The position numbers and the translations under genes are program-made. A DNA stretch of 48,065 nucleotides from an uncultured Methanobacteriaceae archaeon (GTDB taxonomy: Archaea; Methanobacteriota; Methanobacteria; Methanobacteriales; Methanobacteriaceae), in assembly GCA_964547125.1 (NCBI GenBank), contig CAZJLS010000005.1, positions 1-48,065 of the forward strand, in the 5' to 3' direction. This document shows positions 72-12,844 of this stretch, in pieces (position 1 is the first letter of the stretch; every line of letters starts with the position of its first letter). Under the pieces are notes generated by a model that was not told the DNA's origin, ran no database searches, and was given only the letters and a program-made list of their open reading frames with translations.

Positions 72-221
72 GATTTTTTAAATCTCCTAATAAATTTATT
101 GAAAAGTAAAAAAATAGGGGCATAATTATTATAGTGAAATTTATGTTAAAAGTATTATTTATAAAGTACTATGAAAAAAAATAATATGCAATTAAGAGGT
201 AAAAATATTTTATCTAATCTA

Positions 222-614
222 TTACCATTTACGTTTAGATATTGCTTTTAAACGCTTTTTTTCTAAGTCTTTATATTCTTTACTTTTAAATATATTTTTT
301 TGTCTGTCTGTTCCACTACCTTCATTAGGCATTAATGTTACTAATGTTATTGTATTATCTTCACATGCAAATATCACACGTATTTCTGTGTATCTTTTTG
401 TATCTGGTGCTTTAAATATTACTTCATATTGATTATTTCCAGATTTATCCCATCTTAATGGTTCTTCATACATTACAGTATCTACAATAAATTCCCTACT
501 TATTCCATTATCTTGTAATCTTTGATTAAAATGTGTTGTTTCAAATATCCAATCAATATTTTTTGTATCTCCTACAATAAATTTGTCAAAGACATTCATT
601 TTTTTATTCCTCAA
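222..614 (-). CDS. Small 130-aa DUF4258-like (toxin-like fold) protein. It overlaps the upstream K+ channel gene by 11 nt.
   Basis: THFNQRLQDNGISREFIVDTV and IRVIFACEDNTITLVTLMP resemble the DUF4258 pattern (H..eR..eRgIS..ei ... vITv). It is on the same strand as, and overlaps, ORF 604..1422. Confidence 0.45.
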   Translation of the reverse strand: MRNKKMNVFDKFIVGDTKNIDWIFETTHFNQRLQDNGISREFIVDTVMYEEPLRWDKSGNNQYEVIFKAPDTKRYTEIRVIFACEDNTITLVTLMPNEGSGTDRQKNIFKSKEYKDLEKKRLKAISKRKW

Positions 615-1422
615 GAAGTTTATTTAATTTTTTATCTATTTGTTCCATTTTTTCTTCTAAGTTTTCTAATTTGTTTTTTAATTCATAATTTTCTTTTCGT
701 GATTTTTTTATTTCATGTTTTAATTTATCTCTTGTTATTTTTTCTGTTTTTTCCATATAAACTCCAGACATTGCTGCTGTGAATATACTTATGAAAAATA
801 CTCCAAGTATTACTGTTAATATTCCTATTATTTTTCCAGCATATGATGATGGTACTATATCTCCATATCCCACTCCAGATATTGTCACAATTAAGTACCA
901 TACTGCATCAAATAATGTGTAGAAAGAATTATCTAATGCATATAAGCTTATTACAGATACAATAATGTAAATTAGAAGTATTAATGATATTATTTGTAGT
1001 AATTGGTTTTGTATAAAATATCTTACTGAATTAGCATTTATTTTTTTAATGTTGAATACTCGAATTATTTGGAAGAATTGTAATATTCTAACTATTCTAA
1101 ATACTGCTAAATATCTTAGGAATATGAAGTTAAATGGTATTATTGAGATTATATCAATTATATGTGACCTTATAAATTTTAAAAGGGAATCATTTGATTG
1201 CATATATAATGATATTAGATTTAAAAATAGTATGAAACATACAAATAAATCAAAATATGCCATAAATACTAAATCTTCAATACCGATATCAAAAAAAGAT
1301 ATAGAGATTATGAATATTAAATCAATTATTATTAAGAGTATCAGAATTACATTTTTTAATTGAATTAATGTTGTTTTTCTTTTGTCGTTTGCTACTGTCT
1401 TATCCATAAAAATAATCCTCAT
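604..1422 (-). CDS. Voltage-sensor-containing (Kv/MVP-like, 6TM) potassium channel with a C-terminal coiled coil.
   Basis: K+ selectivity filter [13 protein letters not shown]4-like segment [21 protein letters not shown] has Arg at every third position. About six hydrophobic helices precede a charged coiled-coil tail. Confidence 0.8.
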
Positions 1423-3107
1423 GTTACATATAAGTCATGGTAGTCGTCTCTTGCCATATTGTCAGTTAATTTGCTTATGTAATCCACTATTACTTCTATG
1501 AAAATATAATGGTTCTCAAGTAATGCTTTTAAGAATTTTTCACTATCCGTTAAGTTGTTGTTTTTATTGTTTATTGGAAGTAGGTGTTTTTTGAAGAATT
1601 CTTTTTTAAATTCTCCGTGTTTGTCTAGGATTTCTCTTTTGTTTAAGTTTTCTGGCCATTGTATTTGGTTTAATTTTTTTAGTTTTAAAATATCAAATAG
1701 TAAATCTAAATTAGATGGAGTTGATTCATATTCATCTTCTAAAAATATAGATATGTCTTGTAGATGTTCTACATCTTCATTTTCTAGTTTGATGTTGTAG
1801 TATGTTTTTGAATTATATTTTAAGAATTCTTGTATTAGGCTTAAGTATTCTTTTCGCATTTGTAAAGGGTTACTATAGTATGCTTTGAATAAATGTTTTA
1901 TTATGTATTCGGCTTTTGCGTCAAAACGACTTACTTCATAAGAGTTTATTATTTTATTTGTTATTAAGTTTTCTAGATTGTCATTGAATATTTGAGCTAC
2001 TGGTGAAAAGTTTATTAATTCTTTATTGAAATATGTTCTTTTAGAATTTTTGAATTGTGATTCTTCAATTATTTCTTTTAATTGATTGTTGTCTTTTATT
2101 TTTTTAATATTTTCCAGACTGTTTCTTGTTACATCAGATATGAAGTATGATATTAATTTTTTTGTCATTAATTCCCCACCGAACACTGTTGGGATTTCTG
2201 CACATTGTAAAAATTGTTCTTTTAGACTTTCAAGTTCATTACAATCATTTGGATGTTTTTGTTTGTTTTTTTCTATTATATTATCTATTATCTTGTTTAT
2301 TTTATTTTGGATGTCTTGTCTTAGGTATGGTTCTTGGAAGCAATCATCTAAGTCGTGTTCTCTTTGTGCTATTTCGTCAGCTACATTTACTATTTGTCCT
2401 TCCAATGTTACTGAGAATTTTTTAAAGTCATCTTCATTTATGTTTTCAGGATTGTATAGAAATTCTTCTATGAATTCTGGATCTTTTACGAATCTTTTCC
2501 AGTTCCAACTTTTATTGTCTTTTAAGATTCTTGTGTGTTTAATTATTCCTTCCAATACTTGCCATGTTAGATTTAATCCCCTATTATTTAAGTATTCTTT
2601 TTCTACTATGTCTAATATTTTTGCACTGTTGAAGTTGTGTTTAAATCCACCATAATCTATTTTTAATAATTTTCCATCAAATCCTTCGTTTCCTCTCATT
2701 ATATCGTCGAGTATTTTTTCACCTGCATGGCCAAATGGTGTGTGTCCTATGTCATGTCCTAGTGCTATTGCTTCAGCCAATCTTTCATTTAAGTGTAAAT
2801 TTGATGCTATTCCTCGTGATATTTGGTTTACTTCTAATGTGTGTGTTAGTCTTGTTCTATAGTGATCTCCTTTTTCATAAGAATGTACTTGTGCTTTGTG
2901 TTGTAATCTTCTGAAAGCTTTTGTATGTAATATTCTATCTTTATCTCTTGTGAATTCATCTCGGGTTTCTAATTTCCCACCGAATGAGCTTGAGCTTTCA
3001 TCTATTATTAACCTATCTTCTTTTTTAGGTTTTTGAGCTAAATTTTCCTCTATAAATTTTAATAGTTCAATTATTTCATTTTCATCTATAATATTTACAC
3101 ACACCAA
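1419..3107 (-). CDS. dgt: dGTP triphosphohydrolase-like HD-domain dNTPase (Dgt family).
   Basis: [39 protein letters not shown] and [14 protein letters not shown] are canonical Dgt/HD motifs. The stop overlaps the channel gene start (ATGA, 1419..1422). Confidence 0.85.
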
Positions 3108-3265: not shown

Positions 3266-4681
3266 TTAATTTTGTTTTTTTATTGTATCAATTAATTTTG
3301 CCCAGAATTTGTGTTCATCCCCACAACCTGTAATTAGTATGTATTCGTATTTTGATTTATTTATTAATTCCATTATTTCTTTTATTCTATCATCTAAATC
3401 TTCTATTTCAAAGACTTCTGAATTAAATAGTGATTTAATTTTATTATAGTAAAATTTTCCTATTTTTGCACTTATTCTTCCAGGTATTACTGATACAAAG
3501 TCTGGTTTTAATTCTTTAATTACATTGAAATGGTCATCGAATATTTCTTCTTCCAATTCATCAGGTGTTGTGTATATGAAGTGTAATTTTTTATTTTTAA
3601 GATGTTGTTTCATAAATAATGAATTTACAAGTAATGCATCCCCATTATCTCCTTGACCCACACCTATTAATTTATCATTATATTTTATTATTTCAAATCT
3701 TCCTTGTGGAAGTATTGTTTCATTTAAGTTAGAATAGTATTTTTTAATATTTTTAAGGATGTTTTCTGGTTGTGGTGTGAATGTTGAATATGTTGTTATT
3801 GCACATAGTGCATTGTATAAGTTGTGTAATCCTAATATTGGTGTTTCTATTTTGGTTTTGAATTTAATTGGTATGTTTTTTGTTTGATTATAAGTATTTG
3901 CTTCTATTTCAATAATCCATTTATTATTTTTTGTCTCCAAACTATTGATTTTAACATTTAATTCTGGTTTTTTAAAACCACATGAGCAATAGTAATCTCC
4001 TCTGTGATTCATGTAGTGGTTGTGATAATTTAATGGTTTGCCACATTCTGGACAATTTGCTATTTGGCCTATTGTGTGTGTGATGTTTAAGTTTAAACCA
4101 TAGTATATGACATTTAAATCTTTTTCTTTGTATTTGCCTATGTGTGATGTGAATGGATCATCAGCATTAGTGATTACTGCTCCTTTTTTCATATTTTCTG
4201 TTAGTAATCTTTTTGCTTTAAGATATTCTTCAAATGGGTTTTTAACTCCTGCAACTTGAGTATGTTCTCTTGATATGTTCGTATATACAACACCTATTGG
4301 ATTTACTATTTTTTGTATTGTTTTTGGTTGTCCGTGCTCTATATCTCGTATACCATATTCAAAAATACCAAAATCTGCAGAATTATTTATTAAACCTGTA
4401 GTTAATGCATATATTGTATTATTATCAACACTTTTTGCGATTTTTGTATCCATAGACATTAAATCAATAATCATAGTTGTTGTTGTGGTTTTACCATTAG
4501 TTCCTGTTATGATTATTGAACCATTATTTATTTGGTCTTTTTCTAAAATACTTATGGTATCTATTCCCATTAATCTAATATAAACTAATCCAGGTAAACT
4601 TTTACCACCAGTTGGCAATATTTTAAGTGCAAGATTTAGTAGTTTGCATATTTGTTTTGATAAAGTATATTTCAATGCCAT
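3266..4681 (-). CDS. Mur ligase family protein, MurT-like, with a Cys4 zinc ribbon and a DUF1727-like C-terminus. Likely involved in pseudomurein peptide synthesis.
   Basis: P-loop IIITGTNGKTTTTTMI of the Mur ligase middle domain. CPECGKPLNYHNHYMNHRGDYYCSCG is a Cys4 ribbon as in MurT. The C-terminal region resembles DUF1727. Confidence 0.7.
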   Translation of the reverse strand: MALKYTLSKQICKLLNLALKILPTGGKSLPGLVYIRLMGIDTISILEKDQINNGSIIITGTNGKTTTTTMIIDLMSMDTKIAKSVDNNTIYALTTGLINNSADFGIFEYGIRDIEHGQPKTIQKIVNPIGVVYTNISREHTQVAGVKNPFEEYLKAKRLLTENMKKGAVITNADDPFTSHIGKYKEKDLNVIYYGLNLNITHTIGQIANCPECGKPLNYHNHYMNHRGDYYCSCGFKKPELNVKINSLETKNNKWIIEIEANTYNQTKNIPIKFKTKIETPILGLHNLYNALCAITTYSTFTPQPENILKNIKKYYSNLNETILPQGRFEIIKYNDKLIGVGQGDNGDALLVNSLFMKQHLKNKKLHFIYTTPDELEEEIFDDHFNVIKELKPDFVSVIPGRISAKIGKFYYNKIKSLFNSEVFEIEDLDDRIKEIMELINKSKYEYILITGCGDEHKFWAKLIDTIKKQN

Positions 4682-4802: not shown

Positions 4803-7028
4803 TTATTTAATTATTAAATTCTCTTTAATGTCTTTATATAACTTAATTAAATGATCTTCACTCATATCAATTAAAGGTTCATACATAAAAGAATTTATGT
4901 GAATATTTTCAGGAGTCATTATATTGACTTTATCAAGTAATTCAAATACTATTCCTTCATCCCCTTTTTCTTGTTTATATCTTTTAAATAGTTCTTTTGT
5001 TTGATTTTTCTTTATTGTTTCTGGTTTTATATCTAAAAGTTGAAGAACATATTCTTCTGCTTTAAGCCTTATTGCTATTGATAAGACTATTTTTCTTTCA
5101 ATCCCAAAATCTCCTGTTGGATTATCTGATATTGCATTAGCTCTTTCAAATATTAGATCATATAATGTTCCTTTAAATGGAGATAAAGTCATCGCATATC
5201 TTTCATAAATATCCCTTACGTCACTCCATTTATATTTCTTACCTTCTGTTTTATAATGGAGTATGTTTGTTAGTTTTCTGTATATGTTTCCATCTCTTTT
5301 GTTTCGTTGATATAGTTCTGTTAGATTTCTTATAAATGGTAGTACTGCTATTACTGCATCTAGGTCATTTTTCTCTACTTTATCTTGTAATACTTTAAAG
5401 ATGTTTGATGTGTTTTTTTCTATATTGAAATTTTTAAGAGTTATATTTCCTTCATTTTTTAATGCATAGTATGTGTTTTTGTTATTGACTGTTAGTCTTG
5501 CTTTTACTGTGCGGTAAAAGTCGAAGTTATGTGTTAATATTATTAAGTTAAAGTTTGGATAGGTGCATAAATCGTTTAAGTATTCTATTATTGCATATTT
5601 ATTATTATAGTCGAATGAATCTGCTATATCATCCACTATTACTATTGATTCTTTGTCTTCTTTTTTTCTTTTTTCTAGTTCGTATAGTATGTTTAAGAGG
5701 TATATTGCTCTTTTTTGTCCTTCACTGTAGAATTTTTTTAATTGGTCGAAGCTTATTATATTTTCTTCTCCGAATTCATAGTCTATAAATTCTAGTTTTG
5801 GTGCATTTCCATTTAATATAACATCTTCTTTATTGTTTAATTGTAGTTTAAATGGTATGTTGAATCGTTTATTAAAAAGGTTTGTTACATTTTCCCATTC
5901 TGTTGCTTCATTACATGCTTGAATTCTTATTTTTTCCAAATTTTCTTTTTGTTCAGTGTAAGATTCATATAATTCATTGAGTAGTTCTTCTTCTTTTTTA
6001 ATTAAACTAATCCAATAATCATATTTTAAAGAATCCGTAGTATTTTCTTGGAATATTTTAATGAATTCCTGATTGTTAGCAAAGAAATCTTTAAAACTTG
6101 TTGTTGCCACTGTTTTATTAAGTTCATTATTTATATTTTCAAATTTATCTTTTAATTGAGAATCATTGAATATTCTACTGTTTTCTTTTTCAATTAATTC
6201 TTCTAATTCTTCAAAAGAGGTTATTTCAGATGGAATGTCCTTAAATTTTATAGTATGATTTGCTAGAAATAGATTATTCTTTTTAATATTTTTGGTTAAA
6301 GCATTTAAATGATTATTATCAAATTTGTTTTTAGAGTACAATGGCGATTCGTCTAAAAGTTTATCGAGTAAATTAACATATTCTTCCATTCCTTCTTTAA
6401 CTGTTTCATCTTTTAGGACTTTTTGAGCTTTATCTCCAAATAATAATTCATAACTAAAATCACTTAAATCAACATATTCTTCATTATAATCTTTTAATTC
6501 TAATAAAATATTTAAAAGATTTAATTCTGTTTCGAATACTTCTTGAAATTCTTTTTCAAATGTGAATTCTATTGTATTTCCTTTTTTAACTTTAAGTTTG
6601 GAGATTTTTTTTAAACGGTTTAAAAAGTCAGATTTTTTATCATTGATCTCTGCGCTAATTTCATCGTAGTCTTTTCTGTAATCTTCATTAACTATTAAAT
6701 CTGCTGCATGATTGAAATCATAATTTTCTTCAAATGTAGGTATTACATAGAAATATTCTTTAAAATCTTCTGTTTCTTCTAATTTAATTTCATCATCATT
6801 ATCTAAAATAATAGTAGCATCGATTTTTGGAGGAAGATTTAATACAATATTTTTAGGTTCAATTCCATTACACATGTCCCTAAAAGTATTTGTAAATGAT
6901 GTTTTCATAGTTCCATTAGGTGCATAAATAAGAATACTGTTATTTATATTGTTTTTTGTGAAATTAAAACTATCTTCTATTTTTTTTATTCCATGACAAT
7001 TTTCTAGTTTAAAGTTAAATTTTTTCAA
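4803..7028 (-). CDS. ABC/SMC-type ATPase (741 aa) with a long coiled-coil insertion and a C-terminal domain of unknown function. Possibly a PrrC/RloC-like or defence-type ATPase.
   Basis: N-terminal P-loop-like IYAPNGTMKTSF is degenerate. ABC signature-like SEGQKRAIYLL is followed by Walker B IVIVDD and H-loop LTHNFDF. About 290 aa of charged, heptad-like sequence lies between them. The C-terminal ~230 aa contain RKLTNILH (Rx6H). Confidence 0.6.
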   Translation of the reverse strand: MKKFNFKLENCHGIKKIEDSFNFTKNNINNSILIYAPNGTMKTSFTNTFRDMCNGIEPKNIVLNLPPKIDATIILDNDDEIKLEETEDFKEYFYVIPTFEENYDFNHAADLIVNEDYRKDYDEISAEINDKKSDFLNRLKKISKLKVKKGNTIEFTFEKEFQEVFETELNLLNILLELKDYNEEYVDLSDFSYELLFGDKAQKVLKDETVKEGMEEYVNLLDKLLDESPLYSKNKFDNNHLNALTKNIKKNNLFLANHTIKFKDIPSEITSFEELEELIEKENSRIFNDSQLKDKFENINNELNKTVATTSFKDFFANNQEFIKIFQENTTDSLKYDYWISLIKKEEELLNELYESYTEQKENLEKIRIQACNEATEWENVTNLFNKRFNIPFKLQLNNKEDVILNGNAPKLEFIDYEFGEENIISFDQLKKFYSEGQKRAIYLLNILYELEKRKKEDKESIVIVDDIADSFDYNNKYAIIEYLNDLCTYPNFNLIILTHNFDFYRTVKARLTVNNKNTYYALKNEGNITLKNFNIEKNTSNIFKVLQDKVEKNDLDAVIAVLPFIRNLTELYQRNKRDGNIYRKLTNILHYKTEGKKYKWSDVRDIYERYAMTLSPFKGTLYDLIFERANAISDNPTGDFGIERKIVLSIAIRLKAEEYVLQLLDIKPETIKKNQTKELFKRYKQEKGDEGIVFELLDKVNIMTPENIHINSFMYEPLIDMSEDHLIKLYKDIKENLIIK

Positions 7029-7097: not shown

Positions 7098-8102
7098 TTA
7101 TCCGAATTTGTAAACACAATCATGGCCTGGTGTTTTATAACAGAAGTTGCATGATATGCATTTAGATGGTTTTAAATTACCATTTTCCCATCTTCTAAGT
7201 AAGTGTGGTTCATATAAAAATGGTCTTGATATTCCTAAATATTCAATACTTGTTTCGTTTAAAATACGATTCATATTTTCAATACTTCTATGTCCACCAG
7301 TTAAAATAATTGGAGCACTTATTTCATTTTTTAATTTTATTGCACTATTTTTGAAATATGCCTCATTAGATGCATCTTGAATTATTGGTCTTGATGGTGA
7401 ATTCCCACTAACTTCAAATAAATCCATACCATTTTCATCTAAAATTTTACAAATATTTATAAAATCCTCTTCCAGTAAACCACCTTCAATATAATCTGAA
7501 GAATTTATCTTAATACTAATAATAAAATCATCACTTACAACAGATTTTATTTTCTCTAAAATATCTGTTAAAATTTTTGAATTTGAATTTTGTCCATACT
7601 CATCAGATCTATTATTATATAATGGACTTATAAACTTGCTTAAAAATAGAAAATGTGCTGCATGTATCTGCACACCATCATATCCCGCATTTTCTGCACG
7701 AATTGCTGCATCTTTAAATAAATCAGTTAACTTATCAATTTCTTCTTTTGGAATATTTGTTACTGTTTCAAGTCCATGAGTATGTAAATCAACAATACCT
7801 ATTTGTAAAAATATTAAACTTCCTTCTTTATGTATTGCTTCTGTTAATTCTTTATGTTTTTCTGCTAAAGTGTCATTATGAAATTGTAACATCCCATCTA
7901 CTATTTCATCATCAGGATGCACTGTTGCAATTCCAGTTATTATTCCAGCAATTTGTCCTTTTGCATATTCTTTATATACCTCTAGTATTTCAGGATTTAA
8001 TTCTCCAGTATTTTTTGCAAGGTTTAAGTATGTTGCTGAGCGAAAGACTCTATTTTTTAATTCTTTATTTTTTAACGTATTTTTATCAAATATTGATTTC
8101 AT
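7098..8102 (-). CDS. NADH:flavin oxidoreductase of the Old Yellow Enzyme family, with a C-terminal Cys cluster.
   Basis: TIM-barrel OYE-like layout (GIITGIATVHP, HAAHFLFLSKFISPLYNNRSDEYG, TGGHRS). CISCNFC is a CxxCxxC motif as in FadH/TMADH-type 4Fe-4S OYE homologues. Confidence 0.5.
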   Translation of the reverse strand: MKSIFDKNTLKNKELKNRVFRSATYLNLAKNTGELNPEILEVYKEYAKGQIAGIITGIATVHPDDEIVDGMLQFHNDTLAEKHKELTEAIHKEGSLIFLQIGIVDLHTHGLETVTNIPKEEIDKLTDLFKDAAIRAENAGYDGVQIHAAHFLFLSKFISPLYNNRSDEYGQNSNSKILTDILEKIKSVVSDDFIISIKINSSDYIEGGLLEEDFINICKILDENGMDLFEVSGNSPSRPIIQDASNEAYFKNSAIKLKNEISAPIILTGGHRSIENMNRILNETSIEYLGISRPFLYEPHLLRRWENGNLKPSKCISCNFCYKTPGHDCVYKFG

Positions 8103-8114
8103 TAATACACCTTT

Positions 8115-8687
8115 TTAGTATTTATAGCATTCATGTTCATGATTATCTAATATTCCAATTGATTCTAAGTATGAATAGATTGTTATAGATCCTACAAATT
8201 TCATTCCTTTGCTTTTTAAATCTTTTGATATTTTATCAGATAATGGTGATTTTGTTTTATAATTTTCATTTGTATCTTTTAATGTTTTCCCATCTGTAAA
8301 ACTCCAAACATACTTATCAAAGGAACCATATTCATTTTGTATTTCTTTAAATATTTTTGCATTGTTTATTGCGGATTCTATTTTACCTCTATGTCTTATA
8401 ATGTTTTTATTATTTAAGAGTTCTTCAATTTTTGTTTCATCATATTTTATTATTTTTTCTATATTGAATTTGTCAAATGCTTTTCTGAAGTGTTCTCTTT
8501 TTTTTAATATTGTTATCCATGATAATCCTGCTTGGAATGTTTCAAGTATTAAATTTTCAAATAGTTTAACATCATTATGTACTGGTTTGCACCATTCCTT
8601 GTCATGATATTTTATATAAATTTCTTCTGTTGCATTTACCCAACTACAACGTTTTTTAGTTTTCATTATTACCTCATTAATGTGCAA
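8115..8687 (-). CDS. tag: DNA-3-methyladenine glycosylase I (Tag). The true start is probably the internal Met at about 8666 (MKTKKRCSW).
   Basis: RCSWV, YHDKEWCKPVHNDVKLFENLILETFQAGLSW, KREHFRKAF and IIRHRGKIESAINNA match the Tag family consensus. Confidence 0.85.
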   Translation of the reverse strand: MHINEVIMKTKKRCSWVNATEEIYIKYHDKEWCKPVHNDVKLFENLILETFQAGLSWITILKKREHFRKAFDKFNIEKIIKYDETKIEELLNNKNIIRHRGKIESAINNAKIFKEIQNEYGSFDKYVWSFTDGKTLKDTNENYKTKSPLSDKISKDLKSKGMKFVGSITIYSYLESIGILDNHEHECYKY

Positions 8688-9081
8688 ATAAATAAATAAT
8701 AATTATCATTAAAAATATGAATCCAAATATAATTATTAAAAATAGAGCAGATTGATATGTTCTATTTACTTTTATTTTCTCCCATATTGATTTTGCATTT
8801 TTTGTTCTTATTGATTCTGCTGCTTTTGAATTTGGAGCATATTTCAATATTTCTTCATCAGACAATAAGCCTAGTTTTGGTTCTTTATTTATTGGTAATG
8901 TGAATATTTTATTGTTTTCTTTAACTAATCTTCTTATTTCTTGTTCTTTTAATTCTTCATCTATTCCCACATTACTTAGTGAAAGGTTTGGATATTTTGT
9001 TCCACATGCATTACATGTTACTATCCCGTTTACTTCTTCTAAGTTTCGACTTCCACAGTTTTCACATATAATATCAGACAA
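8677..9081 (-). CDS. Small TFB-type zinc-ribbon protein with a C-terminal transmembrane anchor. Paralog of 9087..9494.
   Basis: CENCGS...CNACGT ribbon, GLLSDEEILKYAPNSKAAESIR linker and a hydrophobic C-terminus FLIIIFGFIFLMIIIIYLF. Confidence 0.55.
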   Translation of the reverse strand: MSDIICENCGSRNLEEVNGIVTCNACGTKYPNLSLSNVGIDEELKEQEIRRLVKENNKIFTLPINKEPKLGLLSDEEILKYAPNSKAAESIRTKNAKSIWEKIKVNRTYQSALFLIIIFGFIFLMIIIIYLFAH

Positions 9082-9086
9082 TTAAA

Positions 9087-9494
9087 TCACCCCGTTAAAA
9101 GCCATATCAATAAAACTCCAACAGCAATTATTATTACAGGTATCAATGCCATTATAATTATCTGATACCAATCATTATACATTATTTTTTCTCTTATAGA
9201 TCCTGCATTTTTGAATTTTATCTCTTTGGCAGCATAAGAGTTTGGAGCATATTTTAATATTTCCTCATCAGTCAGTAAACCTATTCTTGGTTCTGTTTCA
9301 GAATTTGGTGAAGTTGCTTTTTTATTAGCATTAATTAAACGTTCTATTTCTTCTTTTCTTGCTTGTTCTTCAATTTCATTATATTGTGGAATTGTATCTT
9401 GTGAGTATATTGTTCCACAAGATTTACAAACTAATACTCCATCATCTTCTACAAGATGTGTGCTTCCACAGTTTTCACAAAATCTTCTAGGCAT
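9087..9494 (-). CDS. Small TFB-type zinc-ribbon protein with a C-terminal transmembrane anchor. Tandem paralog of 8677..9081.
   Basis: CENCGSTHLVEDDGVLVCKSCGT, the shared GLLTDEEILKYAPNSYAAKEI block, and a C-terminal TM IIIMALIPVIIIAVGVLLIWLL. Confidence 0.55.
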   Translation of the reverse strand: MPRRFCENCGSTHLVEDDGVLVCKSCGTIYSQDTIPQYNEIEEQARKEEIERLINANKKATSPNSETEPRIGLLTDEEILKYAPNSYAAKEIKFKNAGSIREKIMYNDWYQIIIMALIPVIIIAVGVLLIWLLTG

Positions 9495-10193: not shown

Positions 10194-11348
10194 CTAATTA
10201 TTTAATGGTTCTCCACAATTTTCACAGAATTTAAATTCTTCTTTAACTTTCACCCCACATTTAGGGCATTTTAATTCTTTTATAATTTTAACTCCACATT
10301 GATTGCAAAATTTAGCACTAGGATTTACTTGTGCTCCGCAGTTAGTGCAGAATTTCTTTTTCTCATTAGTCTCATCATCATTTGAAACTGGAAGAGTATT
10401 TTCATCTAGTTTTGGTTCATTTTCATTATGAGAATCTTCGTTTGCTGGTTGATTATTTGTGAAAGCTTGAGATTGTTGTGAAAATGGTGATTTCATACCT
10501 CCAACAACACCTTCTTTTAACATTTCACCAAATGCCATAGCAATAGGTATTTGTGTTATCACACCACCAACACCATCTTGTTGACCTGGGTTTTCAGCAT
10601 ATTTTTTAGCAATTTCTGCCATTTGTTCATCAGCCCAGTTAAAGTTAAGTGTTCCATATTCCATTTGTTTATTAAGAACATCTTTAAGCTTTTCAGTATC
10701 TTCTTCAGGTGCAAATAAAGTCCCAACATAAAAATCTACAAGTTCAATACCATAATCATGAAATTCTTCATTTAATTTCTCATGGATTGCTTTAGAAATT
10801 TCATCTAAATGAGTAGTTGCATTAAAATAACTAATTTCAGATAAAAGAGTTGCAAGAGAATCTTTAGCACGAGTAACAATTTTCTGCTTAAAATAATTCA
10901 TTAACTGTTCAGTATTAACAATATTCTGAGTTCCAACAACTTTAACTAAAAATTTACGGGAATCATCAATCTTAAACTCTAAAGCACCAGAAGCACCAAT
11001 ACTTAACATAATACCAAATTGTGGATCAATAATCTGGAATCTGCTACTGGTACCCCATTCCATATTAAGACTAGTTGCCTTATTAATGAAATATACTTCA
11101 CAATGAAATGGACTAACCCCTTCAGTAGGAATATTAATAATATTTCTAAGTAAAGGAATATTTTCAGAATAAAGGGTATATTTTCCAGGACCAAATAAAT
11201 CTAAAGCTTGCCCATCTTTAAAAAATATAGCTTCTTGAGATTGATGAACAATTAATTGACTGTGTGTGTTAAAGTCTTCAGCAGGGTGTTTGTAAACAAG
11301 AGTATCATCCCCACCTTCATACTTAATTACTTTTAAAAGTTCCACCAT
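10194..11348 (-). CDS. SPFH/band-7-like domain protein with three C-terminal zinc ribbons (COG4260 'virion core protein-like' type).
   Basis: SPFH-like N-terminal 270 aa, a Gln/Asn-rich linker, then FCTNCGAQV..FCNQCG, CPKCG and FCENCG ribbons. Confidence 0.65.
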   Translation of the reverse strand: MVELLKVIKYEGGDDTLVYKHPAEDFNTHSQLIVHQSQEAIFFKDGQALDLFGPGKYTLYSENIPLLRNIINIPTEGVSPFHCEVYFINKATSLNMEWGTSSRFQIIDPQFGIMLSIGASGALEFKIDDSRKFLVKVVGTQNIVNTEQLMNYFKQKIVTRAKDSLATLLSEISYFNATTHLDEISKAIHEKLNEEFHDYGIELVDFYVGTLFAPEEDTEKLKDVLNKQMEYGTLNFNWADEQMAEIAKKYAENPGQQDGVGGVITQIPIAMAFGEMLKEGVVGGMKSPFSQQSQAFTNNQPANEDSHNENEPKLDENTLPVSNDDETNEKKKFCTNCGAQVNPSAKFCNQCGVKIIKELKCPKCGVKVKEEFKFCENCGEPLNN

Positions 11349-11567: not shown

Positions 11568-11939
11568 TCATTTATCTGTAAGTTTATGTACTGCGTATGC
11601 AATAATTATTGCAATTATAATTCCTAAAATTAAACCTGGCCATGCACCAATTGCTTTAAATGTAACAGCATATATTATAAAAGCCAAACTAATGTAAGTA
11701 ATGCCTTTACAACAACATATAAGATCTTTATTATCATTATTATTTTGAGGAATATTATTATTTGTGTTTGTATTTTGATTTACTTTTGGGGGTTCAACTT
11801 TAACTGGAGGTGGTGTTTCAACCTTTTTTGAATTATCTTTAAATTTACTTCCACAAGCTTGACAAACTATAAAATCATTTTCTTCTTTAAGATGTGAGCT
11901 TCCACAATTTTCACATCGGTATTCTGTAATATTTGTCAT
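11568..11939 (-). CDS. Zinc-ribbon protein with a Pro/Asn-rich linker and a C-terminal TM anchor.
   Basis: YRCENCGSSHL...CQACGS ribbon, PPPVKVEPPKV linker and a C-terminal hydrophobic segment. Confidence 0.5.
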   Translation of the reverse strand: MTNITEYRCENCGSSHLKEENDFIVCQACGSKFKDNSKKVETPPPVKVEPPKVNQNTNTNNNIPQNNNDNKDLICCCKGITYISLAFIIYAVTFKAIGAWPGLILGIIIAIIIAYAVHKLTDK

Positions 11940-12364: not shown

Positions 12365-12844
12365 TTAAGTTTCTGTATGTGTTATTATTATCATAATTAT
12401 CCAGTATATGATATAAGCGATTTTACCTATGGGTAATGGTATGATATAAAGTAAGAATATTGTGCTTAGTATTATGAAAAATATGGATTTTGTCCATTTT
12501 TTGTAGTATATAAATCCTAGTCCAGGTATTAATGCTGATAGTAATATTGGTATTGGTTTGAATTCTGCATTTAGTATTCCTATGCCTTGTTTTTTTATTG
12601 TGTTTTTTGCTTTGTTTTTTTGTATTTGTCTTTGGTTTATGTTTTTTATGTTTTTGCTTGTTTCTCTTGTGTGTCTTCTGTTGAAGTTTCTGTTTAGTTT
12701 GTCTTGGTCTAGTTCTTTTTTTCTTTGATCTATTTGTTTTTTTCTTTCTAATTCTTTTATTTGTTTTTTTAGTGATTTTCCACAGGTTAAACAGTATCTA
12801 TCATGATTTCTGTTTTCTGCTCCGCATTTTGGACATTTTATCAT
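12365..12844 (-). CDS. Zinc-ribbon protein with a basic coiled linker and a C-terminal two-TM region.
   Basis: MIKCPKCGAE...CLTCGK ribbon, a Lys/Arg-rich linker and a hydrophobic C-terminus. Confidence 0.5.
   Translation of the reverse strand: MIKCPKCGAENRNHDRYCLTCGKSLKKQIKELERKKQIDQRKKELDQDKLNRNFNRRHTRETSKNIKNINQRQIQKNKAKNTIKKQGIGILNAEFKPIPILLSALIPGLGFIYYKKWTKSIFFIILSTIFLLYIIPLPIGKIAYIIYWIIMIIITHTET

Follow-up and report, generated by a model that had tools for sequence, protein, structure and literature searches.

What does a large ATPase gene do when it stands alone, between a Mur ligase and an oxidoreductase, in the chromosome of a methanogen? The gene in question lies on a 48,065-nucleotide stretch of contig CAZJLS010000005.1 from an uncultured Methanobacteriaceae archaeon (the whole stretch is hereafter called the window), a chromosome segment of 26% GC with a histone gene nearby. 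It encodes a protein of 741 amino acids (aa), which a first-pass annotation had proposed to be a single-gene abortive-infection or anticodon-nuclease-like module. Judged by its sequence, the gene is an intact, standalone archaeal member of PDC-S46, an already catalogued family of candidate antiviral genes. Of the readings considered, an ATPase-gated RNase of abortive infection, of the PrrC/RloC type, fits the evidence best, and this is the activity that we predict. A role in defence is probable and RNase chemistry is quite possible; tRNA would be the presumed substrate, and a trigger is presumed as well.

Membership in the family was clear. The PDC-S46 hidden Markov model of PADLOC, which has 719 positions, matched the protein over its full length at E 2e-203, with positions 1-717 aligned to aa 1-736. 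Each of the 37 homologues sampled matched the same model. Nothing sets the window gene apart as a member, but this copy is archaeal and is not embedded in another system. PDCs are PADLOC's phage defence candidates, drawn from genes embedded in BREX, DISARM and type I restriction-modification (R-M) systems, and are explicitly candidates without tested anti-phage activity (Payne et al., bioRxiv 10.1101/2024.01.29.577857). In the literature searched we found no paper that uses the name PDC-S46 and no published domain analysis or mechanism, and papers on archaeal immunity and BREX diversity do not mention the family. Pfam and NCBIfam searches with the protein gave no meaningful match, and phmmer and family-profile searches of PDB sequences found no match. 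More than 3,194 homologues were detected at E up to 1e-3. The nearest one other than the protein itself, from Methanobrevibacter acididurans, is only 49% identical; others come from Methanobacterium, Thalassotalea, Rickettsiales and elsewhere, and the family crosses domains, with bacterial and archaeal members at 30-49% identity. Homologues are also carried by 27 plasmids of very diverse phyla, conjugative ones included, on which they are annotated as 'hypothetical', 'AAA family ATPase' or 'phage infection protein'. A phage origin was rejected, as homologues were present in one of 50,697 phage records and on 13 IMG/VR contigs, several of them near a contig end.

The open reading frame (ORF) is real, as had been annotated. 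It lies on the minus strand and begins with a TTG codon that aligns with the initiator methionine of homologues. An AAGGAG is found 11 nt upstream of the start, with a TATA-like TTATAAAAAA further upstream, and a run of six T follows the stop codon on its 3' side. The plus-strand frame across the same interval is full of stops. An ORF of 741 codons with more than 3,000 homologues, in DNA of 26% GC, is not a product of chance. The GC content of the gene is host-like (24.4% compared with 25.9% for the window), which leaves a recent transfer or compositional anomaly unsupported, and an identical protein is present in independent metagenome samples.

The full-length AlphaFold model (predicted local distance difference test (pLDDT) 86; predicted template modelling score (pTM) 0.70) shows an ABC head of the SMC/Rad50/AAA_13-like fold, in which Walker A, signature, Walker B, D-loop and H-loop follow each other in canonical order and are all conserved. 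Conservation was taken from an alignment of 119 homologues. Every motif quoted by the first-pass annotation is present (Table 1; SIVIVDD occupies aa 461-467), and the interpretation of two of them had to be revised. The P-loop had been described as degenerate. In the family, five of its residues (Y35, N38, G39, K42 and S44) do not vary at all, and at least 90% of members keep A36, M41 and T43. The first Walker A glycine is replaced by alanine, a substitution common to PrrC (IYAFNGTGKTR), with which it aligns in register by hhalign, and the glycine before the lysine is replaced by methionine, which is specific to PDC-S46. Because the motif is conserved family-wide, it is not degenerate in the sense of decay, and that reading was rejected. 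In the Walker B/D-loop, D466, D467, D470, S471, F472, D473 and Y474 are invariant, with 'DD' in place of 'DE' as in PrrC, whose D215 and D216 are essential (PMC3025547).

The coiled-coil insert that had been proposed appears in the model as about 290 helical residues that separate the two head halves, with no long coiled coil. This insert is broken into about 15 helices, each of at most 29 residues, and no CxxC zinc hook is present, the only cysteines being at 11, 53, 372 and 488. Weak similarity to LmuB, mad8 and AAA_13 covers part of this insert. AAA_13 (PF13166), to which the ATPases of PrrC and RloC belong and for which a search had been recommended, gave no match to the window protein at E up to 1. 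Three of five scanned homologues matched it, of which only P0120 passed the cutoff (46.7 bits against 36), and the matches span only profile positions 333-612 of 713, that is, the coiled coil and the C-lobe.

A link was found to PrrC, the bacterial 'suicide' enzyme that cuts tRNA. The PrrC sequence was retrieved by back-translating the published LARP peptide, and the gene found (L113 767..1957) encodes a 396-aa PrrC with every landmark residue in place; a PrrC profile was built from homologues annotated 'anticodon nuclease' at 76-94% identity. Using hhalign we found that the PDC-S46 family matched this profile at E 2.6e-5 (probability 75%) and the single PrrC sequence at E 5.7e-5, and that the C-terminal domain alone gave E 0.11, which is not significant. 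At a permissive threshold the alignment is colinear over about 300 columns, from the P-loop through the Walker B/D-loop and H-loop to RNLxE, and pairs DDIADSFDY with DDPVSSLDe and IPFxRNLxEY with FTLLRNLYEK. R567, N568 and E571 fall on PrrC R320, N321 and E324, which are strictly essential for toxicity (PMC3025547), and the spacing from the H-loop histidine to R-N-x2-E is 67 residues, compared with 69 in PrrC. H591 aligns to PrrC P340, not to H356, and no counterpart of R349-x2-N352-x3-H356, the HEPN Rx6H of PrrC, was found. None of the PADLOC PrrC and RloC models and Pfam AAA_13 reached the window protein. The anticodon-nuclease-like module first envisaged is partly supported. PDC-S46 appears to be distantly related to PrrC, as a remote homologue with a re-wired nuclease domain that lies outside the PrrC and RloC families.

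Both proteins have an ABC ATPase N-domain followed by a helical C-domain (the nuclease in PrrC), and they share the IYA-x-NGT-x-KT form of the P-loop, the Walker B 'DD' with its D-loop, the H-loop and R-N-x2-E; some PDC-S46 homologues even occupy the exact hsdM-hsdS-X-hsdR position. Unlike PrrC, the window protein carries the extra helical insert and is 741 aa long against 396 aa, has methionine for glycine before the P-loop lysine and lacks the LARP motif, and the family has no conserved equivalent of R349 and no Rx6H. PrrC is almost always R-M-linked, whereas most PDC-S46 members, the window copy included, are not. The retrieved PrrC gene lies directly downstream of an ORF at 79..765, a putative hsdS C-terminal fragment, on a contig that IMG/VR classes as viral; this region (L113 79-1957) probably represents a hsd-prrC locus of the host that a prophage call includes or adjoins.

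The C-terminal domain, modelled alone against the family alignment, was all helical (pLDDT 86; pTM 0.87). A HEPN-like fold for it is suggestive and rests on one method. Foldseek of the model against PDB, by which a HEPN fold was to be recognized, returned nothing significant (best E 1.2), the domain profile matched no PDB sequence, and domain members searched against Pfam at E up to 10 matched neither HEPN nor any other recurrent family. The segment RKLTNILH had been read as an Rx6H HEPN motif. R584 is variable, being V, N, F, I, L, M or T in other members, only H591 is invariant, and in the consensus no arginine stands 5-7 residues before H591 or H710. Since R584 is not conserved, the Rx6H pattern is coincidental in the window sequence and was rejected as a catalytic motif. 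What the family does keep is a set of 22 invariant, mostly polar residues. Conserved features include IPF-x-R567-N568-L-x-E571, R654-x3-E658 and Q676-T677, and in the loop at 705-718 T705, E707, N708, I709, H710, N712, S713, F714, M715, E717 and P718 are invariant; in the model of the domain alone this loop had pLDDT below 50. When the domain was run exhaustively with phmmer against 1.84 billion representatives, it yielded 1,007 clusters, 714 of them at E up to 1e-10. The domain was always C-terminal and occurred only in proteins of PDC-S46 architecture, and short matches look like 5'-truncated fragments.

To see the company that these genes keep, we surveyed 96 loci with homologues, 82 of which could be judged for R-M linkage. 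R-M-type genes lay within two genes at 13 of the 82, leaving about 84% without. R-M and helicase families head the Pfam counts of neighbours. With the homologue as X, the order hsdM-hsdS-X-hsdR, the PrrC arrangement in type I R-M, was found at L016 and L056 and hsdM-X-hsdS-hsdR at L074, and a type III-like order, SNF2 helicase-DUF4391-X-N6_N4 methyltransferase(s)-ResIII/RE_endonuc, at L027, L028, L030, L046 and L087. In E. coli the gene is embedded between a DEAD helicase and PglX. PDC-S46 is a single-gene unit, and its embedding in R-M/BREX-type systems was independently recovered among the homologues here; the window gene stands alone and lacks the hsdMSR setting of PrrC. Neighbour clustering of the 96 loci found no conserved partner gene, antitoxin or nuclease, and such a partner was rejected on that ground. 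Defence-island or mobile contexts included AbiJ, KAP and Cas6, and also ApaLI R-M with AAA_15, and integrases were nearby at six loci.

Several of these neighbourhoods deserve separate mention. A near-identical operon is present in Methanobacterium movens (L027 2991-15970) and the gammaproteobacterium Thalassotalea loyana (L028 2812-14208), with an SNF2-like helicase of about 1,083 aa, DUF4391, the PDC-S46 ATPase, N6_N4 methyltransferase(s) and ResIII/RE_endonuc, and it recurs in metagenomes (L030, L046, L087). The helicase-DUF4391 pair beside a type III-like R-M system seems to be undescribed in the literature searched, where DUF4391 is mentioned only in passing. At L086 (2829-10859), L091 (3138-11166) and L076, a HerA-like helicase (DUF87), a Metallophos phosphoesterase and an AAA_23 SbcC-like ATPase adjoin PDC-S46. 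On the Providencia plasmid pPROV188-1 (L110 3812-9621), the homologue lies in a conjugative-type leading region, flanked by a truncated hsdM on one side and an antirestriction gene on the other, a setting reminiscent of the two RloC genes that are reported to be linked to ArdC.

If the gene belongs to defence, its presence should vary among relatives, as the first-pass annotation had reasoned, and this is what we found. The closest available relative (L022, Mur ligase 87% identical) has the gene order Tag, OYE, Mur ligase, ion channel, orf125, SOR_SNZ, with the ATPase missing. DNA alignment revealed that it keeps the first ~105 bp and the last ~86 bp of the gene, riddled with stops, on either side of a 2,035-bp internal deletion (window 6923..4889; L022 junction 1925-1928). 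At the deletion endpoints lie imperfect copies of a short direct repeat (ATTCTTaTTTATG / ATTCTTtTATGTATG), and recombination or slippage between short direct repeats is the suggested cause of the loss. The remnant indicates that an ancestor already carried the gene at this locus and that the relative then lost it. In more distant relatives the gene is absent beside the Mur ligase, and universal conservation at the locus was not found. These comparisons used metagenome contigs of closer relatives in place of Methanobacterium reference loci; the Methanobacterium Mur-ligase loci that we retrieved have no neighbours in common with the window and so are uninformative on synteny. Decay was also seen in E. 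coli, where 6 of 5,426 complete genomes have a full-length PDC-S46 gene and 40 more match its first 369 bp only. In the one of these 40 that was inspected (APEC O2-211; L112 7001-8086), IS1 truncates the homologue after ~378 bp, and the rest is lost together with the adjacent pglX. In E. coli strain E8 (homologue WP_096983205.1), the pglX adjoining the PDC-S46 gene is a pseudogene beside an IS5 element.

How might such a protein work? As most members stand alone, the effector must lie inside the polypeptide, and the C-domain is the only candidate, given its 22 invariant, mostly polar residues and the PrrC-registered R-N-x2-E. Sensing of a trigger and gating of the effector would fall to the ABC head together with the family-specific P-loop and the insert, and the C-domain would act as the effector RNase in abortive infection. 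More tentatively, and with some doubt, PDC-S46 may represent a third, independently diversified lineage of ABC-ATPase-gated anticodon/RNA nucleases beside PrrC and RloC, in bacteria and archaea, with a re-wired active site in which R-N-x2-E is kept and Rx6H is replaced by H591 and/or the ENIHxNS loop. In that lineage, methionine in place of a universal P-loop glycine suggests a nucleotide-sensing switch, not a normal hydrolytic cycle.

The absence of Rx4-6H from the family also invites the view that PDC-S46 works as a sensor or accessory ATPase and lacks nuclease activity, with the C-domain as a non-catalytic binding module like the HEPN domains without this motif (MtlR), which are noted as probably non-catalytic (PMC3710099). 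Such a protein would dock on R-M, BREX-like or helicase complexes or on nucleic acid and modulate them, with the methanogen copy an orphan or acting in trans on R-M systems at other sites of the genome. Members repeatedly lie between R-M-type subunits on the same strand, and the Foldseek, Pfam and PDB sequence searches give a nuclease fold no support. We nevertheless consider this unlikely: a pure adaptor should not be maintained alone, R-M-type genes are missing within two genes at about 84% of the loci that could be judged, and neighbour clustering gave no conserved partner. The invariant C-domain residues are, moreover, mostly polar and of catalytic type, with R-N-x2-E in PrrC register, and the domain is found only in this architecture. 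An effector with a different chemistry is slightly less likely still.

The plasmid copies (27, conjugative ones included, with one in a plasmid leading region by an antirestriction gene), the integrases near six loci, the cross-domain spread at 30-49% identity and the frequent decay would also suit an addiction or stabilization module of mobile DNA, in which a toxic ATPase-effector favours retention of R-M cassettes, plasmids and islands and the methanogen copy is a leftover of past transfer. This we judge improbable. No residue that is invariant in the family has been lost from the methanogen gene, which is intact, its GC content is host-like, the identical protein recurs in independent samples, and no conserved antitoxin-like partner was found; the distinction from defence is partly semantic. 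Least credible, at the edge of what we would entertain, is a housekeeping SMC/Rad50/RecF-like factor in DNA repair or chromosome maintenance, the outcome that universal conservation would have indicated. Only a remnant remains at the same locus in the closest relative, other relatives lack the gene beside the Mur ligase, E. coli rarely has it intact, and the distribution is patchy and plasmid-borne; in addition, the protein has no zinc hook or hinge and no Mre11/SbcD partner in the window. The presence/absence data effectively refute this role.

Compared with other known systems, the predicted ATPase-gated RNase is of a familiar kind. The joining of an ABC ATPase to a HEPN-like domain is known from PrrC, RloC and further ABC-HEPN clades (APECO1_4465, ERFG_01251; Anantharaman et al. 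2013, PMC3710099). RloC, a Rad50-like anticodon nuclease that we compared by its published description, is likewise a large ABC ATPase with a helical insert and a C-terminal domain (the nuclease in RloC), and is mostly standalone and sometimes at type I/III R-M loci, with 8 of 72 RloC genes at R-M loci (PMC2610378) against 13 of 82 for PDC-S46. Two RloC genes are linked to the anti-restriction gene ArdC (PMC2610378), as one PDC-S46 plasmid copy is linked to an anti-restriction gene. PDC-S46 also has an R-x3-E...H pattern; in the RloC triad, R-x3-E-x36-52-H (PMC2610378), the histidine lies 36-52 residues on, whereas after R567-x3-E571 the next invariant histidine, H591, follows after 19. The window protein differs further in having neither a CxxC zinc hook nor a long coiled coil, and the PADLOC RloC model matched neither it nor the sampled homologues. 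From the HEPN superfamily PDC-S46 differs in that Rx4-6H is not conserved, no sequence-level link to HEPN Pfam families was found and Foldseek was not significant. Septu PtuA, the retron Ec83/Eco7 ATPases, Lamassu LmuB, PARIS AriA, MADS mad8 and PDC-S06 work with HNH, Toprim or other effectors, separate or fused, and their systems have partner genes, whereas PDC-S46 has a fused helical domain and no conserved partner.

What is new here is the PrrC link, a hypothesis at the level of residues, the P-loop variant conserved in the family and the natural events of gene loss, which we regard as plausible, not surprising. To our knowledge, methanogenic gut archaea have few known defence systems other than CRISPR and R-M. 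If the prediction is true, a catalogued, uncharacterised family, which forms about 1,000 clusters at 50% identity and occurs in bacteria, in archaea and on plasmids, would gain a concrete mechanism, PrrC-like ATPase-gated RNA cleavage, and PrrC/RloC-type 'second-line' immunity would extend to methanogenic archaea of the gut. Should the family prove to be a third lineage, the methanogen copy would be among the first abortive-infection RNases of the PrrC type to be recognized in an archaeon. The residues of interest are K42, M41, D466/D467, H500, R567, N568, E571, H591, K646, R654 and H710. The change from glycine to methionine beside the P-loop lysine, together with the loss of Rx4-6H while R-N-x2-E is kept, could show how switches and active sites evolve. 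Only two of the 50 window ORFs matched PADLOC models, the ATPase and a dGTPase-like HD gene, and with both decayed in the nearest relative the locus is a clean natural example of defence-gene loss.

Table 1. Features of the PDC-S46 locus (window positions; residue numbers refer to the 741-aa protein).
Feature	Position	Strand	Remarks
Complete PDC-S46 gene, 741 aa, ABC ATPase with putative HEPN-like C-domain	4803..7028	(-)	ORF list, translation
Variant Walker A/P-loop YAPNGTMKTS, aa 35-44	6897..6926	(-)	
Helical insert, ~290 aa, aa ~100-390, between ATPase head halves	5859..6731	(-)	Model secondary structure
ABC signature (C-loop) SEGQKRA, aa 435-441	5706..5726	(-)	S435, G437 invariant
Walker B and D-loop SIVIVDDIADSFDYNNKY, aa 461-478	5595..5648	(-)	Aligned with PrrC IDDPVSSLD
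H-loop LTHNFDF, aa 498-504	5517..5537	(-)	H500, N501 invariant; aligned with PrrC T250-H251
C-terminal domain, aa 536-741	4806..5423	(-)	
R567-N568-L-T-E571, conserved R-N-x2-E motif	5316..5330	(-)	R567 invariant; N568, E571 at least 90%
RKLTNILH, aa 584-591	5256..5279	(-)	Only H591 invariant; L586, T587, L590 at least 90%
Conserved helix K646...R654-L-K-A-E658	5055..5093	(-)	K646, R654 invariant
Near-invariant loop TPENIHINSFMYEP, aa 705-718	4875..4916	(-)	Most conserved stretch of the family
Mur-ligase-family gene, neighbour of ATPase	3266..4681		
OYE-family oxidoreductase gene (Oxidored_FMN), neighbour of ATPase	7098..8102		

The flanking genes are a Mur ligase and an old yellow enzyme (OYE) oxidoreductase, as originally annotated; the closest named relatives of the Mur ligase are from Methanosphaera, at 50-55% identity. 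The 25 Pfam families listed as most frequent for the window ORFs include no integrase or phage family. The dGTPase-like gene, two genes from the ATPase, encodes a 562-aa HD and HD_assoc protein (1419-3107, minus strand) that matched the PADLOC dGTPase model at E 8.8e-76, a model that may also match housekeeping dGTPases. In L022 only a 262-bp remnant of it is left, 79% identical to window 2302-2053, and the two variably present PADLOC-positive genes flank the conserved Mur-ligase gene. Beyond the oxidoreductase there is a run of small paralogues with an N-terminal zinc ribbon and hydrophobic C-terminal tails (8677-9494, 10194-11348, 11568-11939 and 12365-12844, minus strand), alongside an SPFH/Band-7 protein that carries a double zinc ribbon; Zn_Ribbon_1 was matched by four ORFs, and the run is conserved in sister contigs. 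Finally, a 130-aa ORF (222-614, minus strand) that shares 11 nt with the end of the ion-channel gene gave a sub-threshold match to DUF4258, which is toxin-like (E 3.6e-4; 21 bits, the cutoff being 25), and at the equivalent position a 125-aa gene is called in L001 and L022.

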